Shown here: positions 4,495-31,688 of the stretch, piece after piece
Layout of the letters: each line of letters begins with the position of its first letter
Numbering within the stretch: the first letter of the stretch is position 1
Virus record (IMG/VR): IMGVR_UViG_2711768017_000019
Strand: one strand, 5' to 3'
DNA length: 33,726 nucleotides
DNA from: a virus
Taxonomy: Duplodnaviria > Heunggongvirae > Uroviricota > Caudoviricetes
The notes under the pieces: model-generated
Databases searched by the model: none
Told to the model about the DNA's origin: nothing
The model's input: the letters and a program-made list of their open reading frames with translations, nothing else
Translations under genes and position numbers: made by a program

Positions 4495-7400
4495 TCAACG
4501 AATACTGATGCCGGAAGCCGCTTTTTTGGTCACAATCACCGTACAGTCGGTGATATTGCCTGCCCCCTGATTGCCTTTCTGGAAAATCTTAAACTCCAGA
4601 GTGACGCTACCACCACCACTAGGCATATCAATAACTGCACTGTAACTACCGGGAATGGCACCTTTAGTTTCTCTGGATGCGATTAATACGCCGTTTTTGC
4701 GAACTTCAAAACCATAACCCGTGTATCGCGTGCCTCCTGGGTTATTTCCGCTCCCCGGATCGTCATACGCTATACCGTTAAAAATAATGGGCGGAATAAT
4801 AATCTGGCGGTCAAAGTTATGATCATCGCTGATGGTGACTGTAACCGTACCGTCTGGTGTTTCCGTGTTACCCCACGTACCGACTTTTTTCGGGAAGGCT
4901 TTTGATACAGCTTTAACGAAATCCCCTCTGACCTGGGTCGCCTCCAGCATGCCCTTAATCGTACAGTTCTGGTTAATCGTGACATTGTTGAGCGTTCCTG
5001 AGTTCGCATTCACACTACCACTGATATCCGCATTTTTAGCGGTCAGCTTTCCGTCTGATGTCAGGGAAAATACCGGAGGACTGCCACCGCTGGTAATGGC
5101 GGGGGCTGTCAGGCGCTTCAGGAACACGTCGTTCATGAATATCTGGTTGCCCTGCGCCACAAACATCGGCGTTTCATTCCCGTTTGCCGGGTCAATAAAC
5201 GCGATACGATTGGCGGCAACCAGAAACTGGCTCAGCTTGCCTTCCTCCGTGTCCTCCATGCTGAGGCCAATACCCGCGACATAATGTTTGCCGTCTTTGG
5301 TCTGCTCAATTTTGACGCCCCACATCGCATTCCATTTATCGTTAGCGTCCTTCCACTCTTTCGAAAACTCATCCAGTCTGCTGGCGTTATCCTCCGTCAG
5401 ATCAACTTTTTCCAGCAGCTCTTTACCGAGATGGGATTCGGTTATCTTGCCTTTGAAAAAATCCAGGTAACCTTCCGCATCATCGCTCGCCCGACCGACA
5501 GCCTCCACGAATGCTGATTTGCCGACGGTGTTCACACTGCGGATATAAAAGTAATAATCATGGCCCGGTTTGATATTGATACTGGCGGCTATCCAGTACA
5601 GCCCCGCGCCAAGGTAGCGGGCTGTGGTTTCAACCTGCCTGATATCGGTAATCCGCGTTTCCGAGAACCAGAACTCAAACTGTACCGTCGGGTCATAAAC
5701 CGCAAGATGCGGCGTGGCAGTTATCTGAAAATAGCCCGGCGTCAGCTCAATCCGCGACGGTGCTACCGGTGCGGCAATCCTGAACGATACCGACGCCGGA
5801 TCGCCCTGCTGTCCCCAGGCATTTACCGCCCGGACTGTCAGCGTGTACCGTCCCAGCGCCAGTTGCGTGAAGCGGTATGTGGTTTCCGTCGTCCGGGCCG
5901 TGCTGACCAGCCGCTCACTGCCGTCATCCGCTGCCACGGTCAGGCGAAGCATAAAGCTCACCCCCTTCACCACCTTCGGCGTGTCCCAGCGCGCCAGCAC
6001 CTGATATTCCCCGCTGTCTGCGGTGACTTCGGCAGTCAGGTGCTGCACCGCTGGCGGCGTGACACCATTCACCGTGCCGCTCTGGTCGCCGTCAAAGTGC
6101 GCCCCGTTATCCACGATGGCTTCTTTTTCCGGTACATGCTGCACGGCAGTGATGGCATACGTGCCGTCATCGTTCTCACGGATACTCACACAGCGGAACA
6201 GGCGCTGGCGCAACGTCGGCAGCTTCAGCCCCCACACGCTGTATTCAGCAACGCCGTCAGGAACACGGCTCACTTTCACCTTCACGCCGTCGGTGACGGA
6301 CTGAACCTCCACGCTGACCGGATTGCCACTTCCGTCAACCAGGCTTATCAGCATGGTACCGGAGGATGGCAGCGTGATTTCACGGTCGAGCGTCAGCGTC
6401 CGGGTCTGGCTGTTTACCGCCAGCACGCGCCCGCCGATGCTGATACCCGCATAGTCATCATCACAGATTTCAATGACATCGCCCGGCACATGGCGAAGCC
6501 CTTCTGCGCCCACGCTGAAGTCCACGGTCTGCGTTTCCAGCAGTTCTGTTTTAATCAGCCACAGCCCGGCGCGGTGTGCCTGCCCCCGGCTGGTACAGCC
6601 AAAAGCATCCATCTTCGTGACGTTACGACCGTAACGGGCAATGGCCTGCGTATCCTCCACAAGCTCTGTCGCCGTCTCCCAGCCGTTATCCGGGTCAATC
6701 CAGTTCACCTCAACGGCATTATGGCGGTCTTTCAGGGCGCTGAAGCTGTAGCGGAACGGCGCGCCATCATCCGGCATCACCACATTACTGCGGTTATAGG
6801 TCCACACCTTATCCGACGGTCGGTCCTGCACGAACGTCAGCGTCTGCCCGTTCCATACCGGCATACAGCGCCCATTTGTCCACATCCGCCGCACCAAGAC
6901 GTTTCCCCATGCCGTAGCGCGGGTGGGTCAGCATATCCCACAGACACCAGGCCATGTTGTTGCTGTATGCCGGTATGGAACGGGCAGACGCTGACGTTCG
7001 TGCAGGACCGACCGTCGGATAAGGTGTGGACCTATAACCGCAGTAATGTGGTGATGCCGGATGATGGCGCGCCGTTCCGCTACAGCTTCAGCGCCCTGAA
7101 AGACCGCCATAATGCCGTTAGCGCTGTATGCCGGTTTTAACGTTCCGTCCCAGATACCGCTGTATTGTCGCGTCTGCGGGTTATAGTTCGACGGCACCTG
7201 CAGAATGCGCCCGCGAAGATGATAATTACGACTCACCTGCTGGCTGCCGAACTGCTCCGAGTCCACCTGTACGCCGACCAGTGCAGTGTTCGGGTAGCAC
7301 TGTTTCACATCGATGATTTCGGTGTATGACGACCAGAGCGTTTTGTTCTGCAGCTGGTCTGTGGTGCTGTCTGGTGTCATCCTGCGCATCCGGATACTGA

Positions 7401-27914: not shown

Positions 27915-28220
27915 TTACTTTAAACACTGCTCGGTTATGTATTGCTGAGCACCTTCAAGTTGGGCCTGCATCATTACCAGTCGTTCCCGGAGGGTGAAAT
28001 AATCCCGTTCAGCGGTGTCTGCCAGTCGGGGGGAGGCTGCATTATCCACGCCGGAGGCGGTGGTGGCTTCACGCACTGACTGACAGACTGCTTTGATGTG
28101 CAACCGACGACGACCAGCGGCAACATCATCACGCAGAGCATCATTTTCAGCTTTCGCATCAGCTAACTCCTTCGTGTATTTTGCATCGAGCGCAGCAACA
28201 TCACGCTGACGCATCTGCAT
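27915..28220 (-). pseudogene. Rz (i-spanin) remnant lacking the N-terminal membrane anchor
   Basis: MQMRQRDVAALDAKYTKELADAKAENDALRDDVAAGRRRLHIKAVCQSVREATTASGVDNAASPRLADTAERDYFTLRERL... matches the C-terminal two thirds of lambda Rz; the frame upstream hits a TAA at the deletion junction (about 28235-28250). Confidence 0.7.
27974..28159 (-). CDS. Rz1 (o-spanin lipoprotein) embedded in the +1 frame of Rz
   Basis: 61-aa ORF MRKLKMMLCVMMLPLVVVGCTSKQSVSQCVKPPPPPAWIMQPPPDWQTPLNGIISP... with lipobox VVGC and Pro-rich body, lambda Rz1-like. Confidence 0.75.
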   Translation of the reverse strand: MRKLKMMLCVMMLPLVVVGCTSKQSVSQCVKPPPPPAWIMQPPPDWQTPLNGIISPSGNDW

Positions 28221-28249
28221 GTCAGTAATTGCCGCGTTACTGAAACCGT

Positions 28250-28660
28250 TTATGGATTACATCGACATGCGCCTTTGATATCGCCCTGGTTTATTTTGCG
28301 AAGAAGCGTCGATGTTCTGAAATTGCCAGCACCCACGTTGTAAACGAATGAGTAAAGAGCGCCGCGCGTTGTTTCCGGTATATCGACTTTGATGTACGGG
28401 TTAATTTGTCTGGCGACAGTGGCAAGGTCTTTATTCAAGAGTGTTTTGCATTCTGCTTTGGTATACGTTTTACCGAGCATGATGTCTTTTCCTGTATGCC
28501 CGTGACATACAGTCCATACACCAACAATATCTTTGTATGGTATGTAGCTGACACCTTCCAGACCATCGTTACCACTTGGGCCAGTGATTAACACTGATGC
28601 TATAGCAATTGCTCCGCCACCAATAGCAGCAGCAACGACTTTTCGTAATGATGGAGGCAT
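28250..28660 (-). CDS. SAR endolysin (phage 21 R-like lysozyme), C-terminally truncated
   Basis: 136-aa [61 protein letters not shown]... (SAR domain plus lysozyme core). Ends ...IKGACRCNP* where R21 continues about 29 aa further; start overlaps the holin stop. Confidence 0.75.
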
Positions 28661-28932
28661 TATTCACCTCTCGCAGCCTTGCGCTTATCTTCTTTAATCT
28701 TGAAATAAAGGTTTGTCAGGTACGTCAGCAGGCCAAATACCAGACTACCCAGCACACCGATTGCAGCCCACTGTGACGGAGTTACTCTATCGAGCAACTG
28801 TAAAAACCAGTAGCCAGCACTGCCTGCGGAGGTGCCGTAGGCAATGCCTGTTGAAATTTTGTCCATGGATTTCATAGCCTCACCTCCGCACGGAACGGAT
28901 GGCATAGTTATTATGTGTAGGCTTTCAGACAC
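28660..28932 (-). CDS. Class II (pin)holin, phage 21 S-like (probable start at MKSMDK, 28875)
   Basis: ...[71 protein letters not shown] matches S21 including the dual-start MKSMDK motif and the charged C-terminus. Confidence 0.85.
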
Positions 28933-28971
28933 ATCAATCAGAGCCTTAATTGATATATATGCTGGAGACGA

Positions 28972-29000
28972 TGCAATATAAAAAGCTCGCCGTAGCGAGC
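28972..29000 (-). terminator. Rho-independent terminator downstream of the second TolA-like lipoprotein gene
   Basis: Stem agctcgc / gcgagct with 4-nt loop, followed on the minus strand by UUUUUAUAUU. Confidence 0.5.
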
Positions 29001-29126
29001 TAATAAAATGTATTTCTCTGATATTATGTTTATTTGTATTAGCTCAGACTTGACATCACAGGTTTCGTATATAGAACATCATCAAATCTGTCAGTTTGCT
29101 ATGAATGAGATATAGTAATTGAAGAG

Positions 29127-29522
29127 CTAACCTCGCATGTCAAAGCCAGATTTCTGAAAATCTCTGTAGACTTCCGGATTGTTGAAGGCCGGAAATTTGG
29201 CTTTATGAGCTGCGGACTTTATCGCTTCGCAATAGGCTTTATCACCGTTACTGGTAGATATTTTTAACGCCGTGCCATCCTGAGAGAATTCCATATGCAA
29301 CCTGCATTTTTTCCCTTTCCAGTTATGCGGCTCATCAAGTTTGGCATTAATTGCAGCTCTGATTCCCCGCGCTTGCGCCCCCCATTCATCCTGATCATCC
29401 CAGCGTCCTGAACTGCAACTACCTGTAGCAGTAGTTTTGTGGCAATCTGAAGGGTGTAAAGGTGTGCATCCCGCAACAAAACCGACCCAAAAAGTCAACA
29501 TAACGATTTTCTTTAATCCCAC
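29127..29522 (-). CDS. Lipoprotein with TolA domain III-like C-terminal domain (paralogue 2)
   Basis: 131-aa ORF, GTG start with GAGGAG RBS, signal peptide with lipobox VAGC. C-terminus KKCRLHMEFSQDGTALKISTSNGDKAYCEAIKSAAHKAKFPAFNNPEVYRDFQKSGFDMRG aligns with the C-terminus of E. coli TolA, including both Cys at the same 26-residue spacing. Confidence 0.55.
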   Translation of the reverse strand: MGLKKIVMLTFWVGFVAGCTPLHPSDCHKTTATGSCSSGRWDDQDEWGAQARGIRAAINAKLDEPHNWKGKKCRLHMEFSQDGTALKISTSNGDKAYCEAIKSAAHKAKFPAFNNPEVYRDFQKSGFDMRG

Positions 29523-29672
29523 TTCTTGCTCCTCAATCCATTAAAATCTCAGCAATAGTAGTTGTTACGTCCGCCACTGGCTCAGAGCTGACTATCCGCT
29601 AAATTTAGCTCAGTGCCGTAGCTGTGTCAGAACAAACCTAAGCCGAAACCGTTTATTACAAAACAATAAATA

Positions 29673-30101
29673 TCAGGGTTTAAAATCCAGCACCCCATTT
29701 TGAAATACTTTATATACTTCCGGCGAAGGGGGGGCAGGTATATCAGCATTCTTTATCGCATTCATCGCTTCACGACATAAATCGAGGTCTCCACTTTCTC
29801 TTTTAACCTCCAGTAGAAGGCCATTCGGGGCCATATGCATTCTCAGTGTACACTCTTTTCCTGAATACTTACTCGCATCCCCGAACTGTTTTTCGATGGC
29901 GCTCTTGATTTGATGGGCATACAGACGGATATCCTCACTAACATCAGAAGTACGTTCAGATGAACTCACATACTGTGTCTCTATTGCTTTATCGGAGTAA
30001 TATGATGTACGGTCATGATAATTTGTCGATACAGCATCAGTGCACCCGATAATAATCCCACTAATAATCAACGTAAGAATTGATGCGCTACGAAAACCCA
30101 T
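29673..30101 (-). CDS. Lipoprotein with TolA domain III-like C-terminal domain (paralogue 1)
   Basis: 142-aa ORF, ATG with GAGGA RBS, lipobox IIGC. C-terminus QIKSAIEKQFGDASKYSGKECTLRMHMAPNGLLLEVKRESGDLDLCREAMNAIKNADIPAPPSPEVYKVFQNGVLDFKP closely parallels the remembered TolA C-terminus (...QIKSAIESKFYDASSYAGKTCTLRIKLAPDGMLLDIKPEGGDPALCQAALAAAKLAKIPKPPSQAVYEVFKNAPLDFKP). Confidence 0.65.
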   Translation of the reverse strand: MGFRSASILTLIISGIIIGCTDAVSTNYHDRTSYYSDKAIETQYVSSSERTSDVSEDIRLYAHQIKSAIEKQFGDASKYSGKECTLRMHMAPNGLLLEVKRESGDLDLCREAMNAIKNADIPAPPSPEVYKVFQNGVLDFKP

Positions 30102-30218
30102 TTTTCCTCACATATGTCATATAGTAAAGGATTATATATACCGTTGTTTTGGACGCTCAAACAGCGAATCAGATCAAATAAAACGCACATTTGTTAACAT
30201 TTACACAAAGTCTGCGTG

Positions 30219-30239
30219 GGATATTCTGAAAGAATATCC
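30219..30239. promoter_or_regulatory. Perfect 8-5-8 palindrome GGATATTC-TGAAA-GAATATCC upstream of TolA-like lipoprotein 1
   Basis: Read directly; lies about 120 bp upstream of the ATG at 30101 and about 75 bp upstream of a TATAAT-like -10 on the minus strand (around 30140-30150). Confidence 0.3.
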
Positions 30240-30689
30240 ATAATGTGGAGAGAATCTATTGAAGTGCATGGTGCCGGGTGCCTCCCGGTGAACAAAATGT
30301 TCGTGATACCTGTCGGCGACAGAAAAGGTTAATGGTATCACCCCACCGCACAGGGGGATTCACCATGCAGGAGTTTTCTTAGCAAACTCACTGCGCGCCC
30401 GGCAACTCCCAACCACATAAAATGCGGAGTTTGTGGCATTTATGCATATAACTCGCAGGAATTATCTTAAAAAACTGATGTCGATCCGGATTAAAAAGAA
30501 GCAGGTCATCATCAGATGACTGGAAAAAAGGAAAACAAAAAATACTCATCATACAGTTTTGATTGCAGGGATGAGCCTGCTATGCACAATATGCAGAATA
30601 TAAGCAAGATAAAAATATGCAGGCATATTATTTCGGATCTTGTTATTAACACAACCTTTTTAATAATCATTTGGCATACAATAAACCAG

Positions 30690-31145: not shown

Positions 31146-31688
31146 TCAAGCCATTTTCTCAGCAAATGATTCACGCATGGGAATATATAGGGCATACTCA
31201 GCAACAGCTAACCAATTAGCAATCCGTTTTTCGCATGTGCTAAAACACCACTCTGGGTGTGCATCATTTAGCAATTCAGCCATTTTGCGCTTAGTCATCC
31301 CCCGCCCTTCATAGCGTTGCCGGAGAATGCAAATCAATCCTGGATGCTCTGCCAGCACCTCACTTATGACTCGATCAATACATAACGCCTCTGCATCAGT
31401 ACAATGCGCCAGCCAGCTCTTTTGCTTGCCGTTGATCATCTCTCGCAAAAACGCTTCCAGCTCAGCTTTCTCTATTCCCGCTTTTTTCATTCTGCGCAGG
31501 GCTTCATTAATGGCTGTTTTCGTCAGTTTTTTGGATGCCAACAACTGATTGAACATATTCCCTGACCTGCCACCGCCAATATACGACCAGCGCCCCCACA
31601 TACGTAGTTTTCCCTGAATCCAGACACTTTCCAGCGTGGTGAGGCGAAGGTGTTCTCCGCTTTTTCCTGTATTCGTTGGGTAAATCAT
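31146..31688 (-). CDS. Late-gene antiterminator, Q-like (putative)
   Basis: 180-aa ORF directly after the nin-like genes and before the terminator/lysis region; several Cys (HCTD, LCID, WCFSTC) compatible with a Zn-binding Q protein; not lambda- or 82-type by sequence, possibly 21-type like the lysis cassette. Confidence 0.5.
   Translation of the reverse strand: MIYPTNTGKSGEHLRLTTLESVWIQGKLRMWGRWSYIGGGRSGNMFNQLLASKKLTKTAINEALRRMKKAGIEKAELEAFLREMINGKQKSWLAHCTDAEALCIDRVISEVLAEHPGLICILRQRYEGRGMTKRKMAELLNDAHPEWCFSTCEKRIANWLAVAEYALYIPMRESFAEKMA

Follow-up and report, generated by a model that had tools for sequence, protein, structure and literature searches.

Group A colicins and filamentous phages of the Ff, If1 and CTXphi types all use the same handle to enter the cell, TolA domain III (TolAIII), which is also the point at which force is transmitted in the Tol-Pal system. 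Pilus-specific inoviruses use TolA as a co-receptor. We describe here two genes, orfA and orfB, which encode short lipoproteins ending in a TolAIII-like domain. They lie in tandem (29127-30101, minus strand) in 33,726 nucleotides of DNA from the IMG/VR virus record IMGVR_UViG_2711768017_000019 (Caudoviricetes), a stretch referred to throughout as the window. The window is a Rac-like lambdoid prophage, and the 1.5 kb queried around the two genes (28900-30400) is 100% identical in many Escherichia coli chromosomes.

The surfaces through which TolA is recognized have been mapped. Strand β3, A415-K420, is the binding strand for TolB, g3p-N1 and colicin N; partners are added to its backbone as a further strand, and either D418P or K420P abolishes binding (PMC4339652; PMC7391070). 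The colicin A site consists of β2 residues L375-P380 together with K368, K379 and K396 (PMC3365938). The affinity of TolAIII for TolB is weak, with a dissociation constant (Kd) of 40-200 µM (PMC7391070). CpoB had been counted among the partners of domain III in an earlier note on this DNA, which was made from the sequence alone; this was wrong, as CpoB binds TolA domain II (PMC7391070).

Several described systems resemble the locus in part. Cor of phages phi80, HK022 and N15 and Llp of T5 are likewise small phage-encoded outer-membrane lipoproteins, and they protect the cell from incoming phages and colicins in that they interfere, on the periplasmic side, with a component needed for entry (PMC3594210). 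They bind and inactivate the receptor FhuA, whereas the products of orfA and orfB would mimic a co-receptor and bind the invader or TolB, and they share neither sequence nor fold with these products. A second parallel is the tolerance caused by g3p or colicin translocation domains in the periplasm. The same TolAIII interface is involved, and the expected consequences are the same: tolerance to group A colicins and filamentous phages, with the risk of a leaky envelope. In that case, however, the ligand saturates host TolA; here, extra and uncoupled TolAIII would saturate the ligand. Levengood-Freyermuth, Click and Webster reportedly found in 1993 that periplasmic overproduction of soluble TolAIII renders E. 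coli colicin-tolerant and leaky. Finally, the cargo found between the Q and holin genes of lambdoid phages (stx, nanS-p, tRNAs, AraC-like regulators) occupies the same hotspot as orfA and orfB, whose cassette is exchanged between prophages with differing Q and lysis modules; bor and lom are the classic lambdoid morons, and a putative promoter and terminator of its own would be a further likeness of the cassette. The orfA and orfB products differ from such cargo in mimicking a host envelope domain rather than being a toxin, an esterase or a serum-resistance factor.

Neither a full-text literature search, which covers few subscription journals, nor a 2020 review of Tol-Pal (PMC7391070) yielded any account of TolAIII lipoproteins encoded by phages or plasmids. 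The homology to the TolA domain is already visible to annotation pipelines, under the product name 'TolA C-terminal domain-containing protein'. Both proteins belong to PHROG 5772, which is listed as of 'unknown function'.

Gene models, fold and binding surfaces

All features located below lie on the minus strand. orfA (29673..30101) encodes a prolipoprotein of 142 amino acids (aa) from an ATG start, and orfB (29127..29522) one of 131 aa from a GTG; both models are based on the open reading frame (ORF) together with Pfam and Protein Data Bank (PDB) matches. Each ORF has a strong ribosome-binding site (RBS) of its own, as the earlier note had stated: GAGGA (30105..30109) stands 4 nt ahead of the orfA ATG, and GAGGAG (29529..29534) stands 6 nt ahead of the orfB GTG. 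The RefSeq pipeline PGAP begins orfB at an internal ATG, giving 124 aa; the GTG is preferred because of the placement of the RBS. In translation the N-termini read MGFRSASILTLIISGIIIG-C20-TDA for orfA and MGLKKIVMLTFWVGFVAG-C19-TPL for orfB, and the signal peptides with their lipoboxes occupy 30042..30101 and 29466..29522, respectively. Both have the layout of signal peptidase II substrates, for which the lipobox pattern [LVI][ASTVI][GAS]C was used. orfA has a charged R4, the hydrophobic stretch ILTLIISGIIIG and the lipobox IIGC, which ends in Cys20; orfB has charged K4 and K5, the hydrophobic stretch IVMLTFWVGFV and the lipobox VAGC, which ends in Cys19. That both are lipoproteins with Thr at +2, an earlier claim, is borne out, and the lipobox Cys is invariant in an alignment of 33 homologues. 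In homologues residue +2 is Ala, Ser or Thr and never Asp. Because of the Thr at +2, the Lol sorting rule predicts that the orfA and orfB products are outer-membrane lipoproteins.

The domain that follows spans aa 52-142 of orfA (29676..29948) and aa 46-131 of orfB (29130..29387). Both proteins exceed the gathering score of 25 bits for the Pfam family PF06519 ('TolA C-terminal'), orfA with 82.6 bits (E 2.4e-23) and orfB with 54.6 bits (E 1.3e-14); orfA also lies above the cut-off of Pfam TonB_2. Solved chains of E. coli TolAIII (1s62, 1tol, 3qdp, 2x9a) are matched with E 5e-28 by orfA and E 5e-9 by orfB. Aligned with residues 334-421 of K-12 TolA, orfA is identical at 52 of 88 positions (59%), including QIKSAIE, GK.CTLR, IP.PPS..VY.VF.N and LDFKP, and the TolA sequence used in the earlier note proves accurate. 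The orfB domain is identical to K-12 TolA at 27 of 79 positions. Identity between orfA and orfB is 27-30% over the full length, with 25 of 79 positions shared in the domain. Two Cys, predicted to form a disulfide, stand 25 residues apart in all three proteins (Cys84-Cys109 in orfA, Cys73-Cys98 in orfB), the identical spacing that had been noticed at the outset. AlphaFold gives the domain a predicted local distance difference test score (pLDDT) of about 90 in orfA and above 90 in orfB, and models the N-terminal tethers as disordered. Foldseek superposes the orfA model on TolAIII with a root-mean-square deviation (rmsd) of 0.6 Å (2x9a_B) or 0.7 Å (1tol) over 88 residues, and the orfB model with 1.0-1.2 Å (1.0 Å over 84 residues for 3qdp). 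The superposition targets include TolAIII from g3p and colicin A complexes; 2X9A is the complex of If1 g3p with TolA. Profile searches and predicted structures thus confirm the proposal that each protein carries the fold of TolA domain III.

The partner-binding surfaces are a different matter in the two proteins. In the alignment, the C-terminal β3 of orfA reads VLDFKP, compared with APLDFKP in TolA, and Y340 and F419 are retained; its colicin A site has the sequence LLEVKR, and K379 and K396, two of the three Lys, are kept. In orfB, β3 reads GFDMRG and retains only the pattern of a hydrophobic residue, Asp, a hydrophobic residue and a basic residue (FDMR), while β2 reads ALKIST and the three Lys of the colicin A site have all been lost. 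An equivalent of Asp418 occurs without exception in both families, and in both proteins the β3 pattern is TolA-like. By this comparison of β3 and β2 residues, orfA closely mimics the surface of E. coli TolAIII; orfB does not. A TolB-box-like motif considered in orfB (SSGRWDDQDEW, against DGSGW of colicins E) was dropped: its Gly-Trp core is interrupted, and W47 lies within the domain, opposite TolA Y340 in the alignment.

The likeness to E. coli TolAIII (PDB 1S62, 1TOL, 3QDP, 2X9A) extends to the fold, the disulfide spacing, the Asp418 equivalent and, in orfA, an identical LDFKP edge strand. The remainder of TolA is absent. Instead of a domain I anchor for coupling to TolQ-TolR, the N-terminus carries a cleavable lipoprotein signal peptide, and the Ala/Lys/Glu-rich helical domain II of K-12 TolA is also missing, the proteins being 131-142 aa in all with a tether of 25-30 residues before the domain. 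Without domains I and II there is no coupling to TolQR or to the proton-motive force. Again unlike TolA, the two proteins would be lipid-anchored to the outer membrane rather than the inner membrane (IM), as predicted from their signals, and they are encoded on mobile elements; orfB differs further in its diverged surfaces and in a Cys loop. The orfA tether (aa 21-51, 29949..30041) is rich in Ser, Thr, Tyr and Asp, predicted to be disordered (pLDDT <50 over residues 13-51) and fast-evolving. The N-terminal Cys loop of orfB (aa 20-45, 29388..29465), which contains C27 and C36, has the consensus PLHPSxCHKTTAxGSCSSGRWDDQDE and is kept across genera; AlphaFold confidence is low there. Its constraint, expressed as the ratio of non-synonymous to synonymous substitution rates (dN/dS 0.02-0.10), is as strong as that of the orfB domain.

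Mobility, distribution and selection

The earlier note regarded the pair as tandem paralogues, two diverged copies that suggested different targets. Different targets would fit the strong differences at both known binding surfaces; the pair is, however, not a local tandem duplication. Such an origin is ruled out by the identity of 27-30%, by a break in homology at the orfA stop codon and by the separate occurrence of the orfB block on plasmids. The comparisons instead identify orfA and orfB as two independently mobile cassettes, long diverged. A 1.6-kb block (28659-30292) is 99% identical in phage mEp460_ev081, where the Q and lysis genes differ. Variants of orfA, 91% and 66% identical, stand alone in the Q-holin interval of other prophages (L046-L053), and the stop codon of orfA marks the exact end of homology with these prophages. 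From RBS to stop (29552-29124), the orfB unit is a block common to plasmids at about 88% identity. Some related phages carry the cassette and others lack it, and it has moved among backbones, as is typical of morons.

Of 5426 complete E. coli genomes, 898 have orfA-like genes, almost always on the chromosome, and 1269 (about 23%) have orfB-like genes; the orfA-orfB tandem is found in 771 (about 14%). orfA-like genes are confined to prophages of E. coli and Shigella. A protein search with orfB yielded 370 homologues, and K-12 gave no match when searched for with either protein. An exhaustive HMMER search revealed dozens of clusters at 50% identity, made up of lipobox proteins of 120-150 aa with a TolAIII domain. 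No significant match to the TolAIII fold was found among the viral structures of BFVD.

Roughly 600 plasmids carry an orfB-like gene at about 88% identity to the orfB unit. On pO157 it sits between the leading region and toxB. On I-complex (IncK2/Z, MPF_I) plasmids it lies 67 nt 3' of the relaxase gene and in the same orientation, in the order nikA-nikB-gene (loci L003 6004-9558, L044 842-4396 and L045 842-4396), which suggests co-transcription with the relaxosome operon. A third type of TolAIII lipoprotein, 144 aa long with the lipobox ITAC and the C-terminal β3 ALDFRL, is found on about 290 Klebsiella plasmids. On the IncF plasmid that was inspected, pKPN-b0b of Klebsiella pneumoniae (L043 4217-5246), it adjoins a thioredoxin-fold gene upstream, possibly a dedicated disulfide partner.

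Outside Shigella, orfB-like genes of 65-89% identity occur as single copies in 27 Enterobacterales species representatives. No conserved neighbourhood of the chromosomal copies was found; their neighbours vary between genera. In Serratia marcescens (L008-L011), a GmrSD-family gene and a HEPN-domain gene follow about 550 bp downstream of the solo orfB-like gene. The region lies between nrdDG and an ArsP-family permease gene, and by its gene content looks like a small defence islet.

RefSeq/PGAP gives orfA the pseudogene label 'tolA, incomplete, missing N-terminus' (29673-30101; 6774-7034 in locus L001), because of its local match to the full-length TolA equivalog model TIGR02794. orfA scores 75.6 bits against this model, above the cut-off of 59.45, in a purely local match at model positions 265-362; orfB scores 47.2 bits and stays under it. 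With PRK09510 both are under the cut-off of 213 (107.8 bits for orfA, 53.7 for orfB), and the NCBIfam TolA models as a whole are matched only at positions 265-362 or 293-386. Moreover, the two genes lie in the late region of a prophage and not in the ybgC-tolQRA-tolB-pal-cpoB operon, which was confirmed in K-12. The pseudogene call for orfA and the short start of orfB look like annotation artefacts to which the full-length TolA equivalog models gave rise, and the gene models given above would correct a systematic mis-annotation of orfA in RefSeq as a truncated tolA pseudogene.

Both genes are under purifying selection. Pairwise dN/dS values are 0.09-0.35 for the orfA domain, 0.4-0.8 for its tether and 0.03-0.21 for the orfB domain. 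At the nucleotide level the orfA domain is 58.7% identical to K-12 tolA, with synonymous sites near saturation. Because identity at third positions is 40%, the split of orfA from tolA is taken to be ancient, and the TolA-like motifs of orfA are therefore a sign of selection, not of recent capture. A recent capture of host tolA is ruled out by the same figures, together with the absence of a significant blastn match.

A proposed co-receptor decoy and its rivals

Direct evidence covers the gene models and lipoprotein signals, the fold, the conservation of interface residues, purifying selection, and the mobility and distribution of the genes, and this is the starting point for the reading that we favour. 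We put the probability at roughly 0.45 that the two products act as co-receptor decoys, giving tolerance to filamentous-phage g3p and to group A colicins. The proposed steps are as follows. (i) As cargo ('moron') genes of a lambdoid prophage, orfA and orfB would give rise to products that are exported and lipidated at the lipobox Cys. (ii) Lol sorting would bring these to the inner face of the outer membrane, beneath which the flexible tether of about 25-30 residues would hold a free copy of TolAIII. (iii) The tethered domain would capture TolAIII ligands by β-strand addition, namely g3p-N1 from filamentous phages specific for pili and the translocation domains of group A colicins. It could bind them directly or via TolB, in the form of TolB-colicin complexes, and would do so as they emerge through the outer membrane, ahead of energized TolA. 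(iv) Because the lipoprotein has no TolQR-coupled anchor, a bound ligand would be held without energization. (v) The outcome would be a tolerant lysogen or plasmid host. orfB would be the older and widely mobile relative, with altered surfaces, a putative extra disulfide loop and presumably another range of ligands. In this scheme we infer that the proteins reach the outer membrane, that they are made in lysogens and bind these ligands, and that the host becomes tolerant.

The earlier note had suggested decoys against colicins or filamentous phages, or modulators of Tol-Pal; this is plausible and agrees with the retention in orfA of β3 and of most of the colicin A site, with the Thr at +2, and with the relatives that neighbour transfer genes on conjugative plasmids. 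The context of the genes is consistent with a decoy role. Occurrence of the cassette in prophages with differing Q and lysis genes, and on plasmids, fits a host-protective cargo gene. Both genes are intact in the present prophage copy, in which the junction of endolysin and Rz genes is deleted, and this retention likewise fits cargo that benefits the host. The position beside the relaxase operon on plasmids that make pili accords with protection from pilus-specific inoviruses.

Several points weigh against the decoy. The late-operon position means that main expression could be lytic rather than in lysogens, and the promoter upstream of orfA is a consensus match only. Because TolAIII binds TolB so weakly, an effective decoy may also disturb Tol-Pal. 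Solo chromosomal orfB-like genes in Enterobacter, Leclercia and Serratia have no obvious mobile context and would fit a physiological role too. Just one of 50,697 phage records holds a gene of this kind, and no PADLOC defence model matches orfA or orfB. No experimental work on any member of the family was found in the literature, the full-text search being thin on subscription journals.

The main rival, which we consider unlikely, is modulation of Tol-Pal itself. A tethered TolAIII could bind the disordered N-terminus of TolB beside Pal, compete with energized TolA and so locally weaken the tethering of the outer membrane to the wall. The payoff would be hypervesiculation, easier rupture of the envelope at phage lysis or envelope remodelling near conjugative pili. 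Vesicle production is seen in a review as regulable via TolB-TolA or TolB-Pal contacts (PMC7391070), the TolB-binding strand is conserved in orfA, and the genes stand immediately upstream of the holin gene in the late transcription unit or, on I-complex plasmids, behind the relaxase operon. Outer-membrane disruption, however, is already served by spanin genes in intact relatives, and the family is retained in chromosomes and plasmids that have no lysis genes, as well as in a lysis-defective prophage copy. A constitutive tol-like phenotype would also be costly, yet the cassette is carried by 14% of complete E. coli genomes.

A blocker resembling Cor or Llp appears improbable. Here the domain, mainly that of orfB, would bind a periplasm-exposed strand of an outer-membrane protein, for instance one like a TonB box, and thereby inactivate a phage or bacteriocin receptor; TolA ligands would play no part. 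Prophage lipoproteins that block receptors from within the periplasm form an established class (PMC3594210). TolAIII and the C-terminal domain of TonB are alike in fold and in strand-addition mode, orfA exceeds the TonB_2 cut-off, and the known TolA-ligand surfaces are not conserved in orfB. Against this, no sequence signal points to any receptor, the surfaces of orfA are TolA-like rather than TonB-like, and orfA and orfB share the invariant Asp418 equivalent and a TolA-like β3 pattern. The last alternative, that the genes are non-functional remnants of a captured tolA, as the PGAP label of orfA implies, is effectively excluded as far as sequence analysis reaches: each ORF is complete with its own RBS and with a lipoprotein signal replacing TolA domains I and II, the dN/dS values of both lie well under 1, the two types recur in 898 and 1269 genomes, and the divergence of orfA from tolA at the nucleotide level is ancient.

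The decoy reading can be extended, tentatively and at rather less than even odds, to the family as a whole. Outer-membrane lipoproteins with an uncoupled TolAIII may form a widespread and unrecognized class of envelope immunity on prophages, conjugative plasmids and genomic islets, acting as co-receptor decoys that would trap Tol-dependent colicins and pilus-specific filamentous phages at the outer membrane, with subfamilies (orfA, orfB and the Klebsiella plasmid type) tuned to different invaders and, on conjugative plasmids, offsetting the cost of phages that attack the pilus. If true, periplasmic co-receptor mimicry would be a new way in which mobile elements shield their hosts. Its practical reach would include the plasmid pO157 of enterohaemorrhagic E. 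coli (EHEC) and I-complex resistance plasmids, which carry the orfB type, and the Klebsiella plasmids with the related third type. Antibacterial strategies based on colicins or filamentous phages could be affected, as could phage-display hosts, and the Tol-Pal field would gain a ready-made competitor in vivo.

The surrounding prophage region

The gene order of the region is DUF1367, YbcO-like, DUF1133 (Q-like), about 1 kb of non-coding DNA, orfA, orfB, holin, endolysin, Rz/Rz1, trkG and terminase. The insertion of the pair between the Q-like gene and the holin gene is clear, and the promoter and terminator flanks are consensus matches. Upstream lie the DUF1133 Q-like late-gene regulator (31146..31688; RefSeq annotation of the identical locus, and PF06576 on a homologous gene) and terminator-like hairpins found by scanning (30718-30687). 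Downstream, a hairpin with a T run, like that of an intrinsic terminator (28984..29001; scan), separates orfB from the class II holin gene (essD-like, 28660..28875; RefSeq annotation and ORF). The position described in the earlier note, between the Q/terminator region and the holin with a terminator after the pair, is therefore upheld. The G+C content is 0.42 for orfA and 0.46 for orfB, compared with about 0.48-0.52 for nearby phage genes.

A putative sigma-70 promoter-like site, TTGAGC-18-TATAAT (30131..30160), lies about 30 nt upstream of the orfA start; it agrees with the consensus at 10 of 12 positions, and its -10 hexamer is perfect. A 'TolA' entry in a ciprofloxacin transcriptome of EHEC (EDL933_2012) was unusable as expression evidence, since the gene is listed as a tail fiber protein.

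Just upstream of orfA is a structured RNA element of the STnc100 family (30212..30398; Rfam RF02076, 86.6 bits against a gathering score of 47), located within the block common to other cassette-bearing prophages. The 299-nt leader folds with z = -3.65. In the related prophage L051 three STnc100 copies flank an orfA variant (4704-4877, 5599-5803 and 5854-6061), and a single copy is present in L012 (5444-5634). They appear to be recurring modules, of boundary or leader type, in the cargo region between Q and the holin. Other neighbours of orfA variants in that interval are a TfpB-like gene, an AraC-family regulator, a nanS-p-type esterase, tRNA genes, a PmrD-like gene and a Y1 transposase (L046-L049 2636-5429; L050 and L052 3550-3877), besides further STnc100 copies. 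No tRNA genes were found in the window.

At a junction located at 28239-28260, 236 nt of the otherwise near-identical locus of strain ECCHD184 are replaced in the window by 22 different nt. The deletion removes the 3' end of the endolysin gene (ORF 28250-28660, 136 aa compared with 165) and the 5' end of Rz (ORF 27915-28220, 101 aa compared with 154), and this copy of the prophage is probably lysis-defective. The ORF of the Rz1 lipoprotein (27974-28159) is whole despite the neighbouring deletion.

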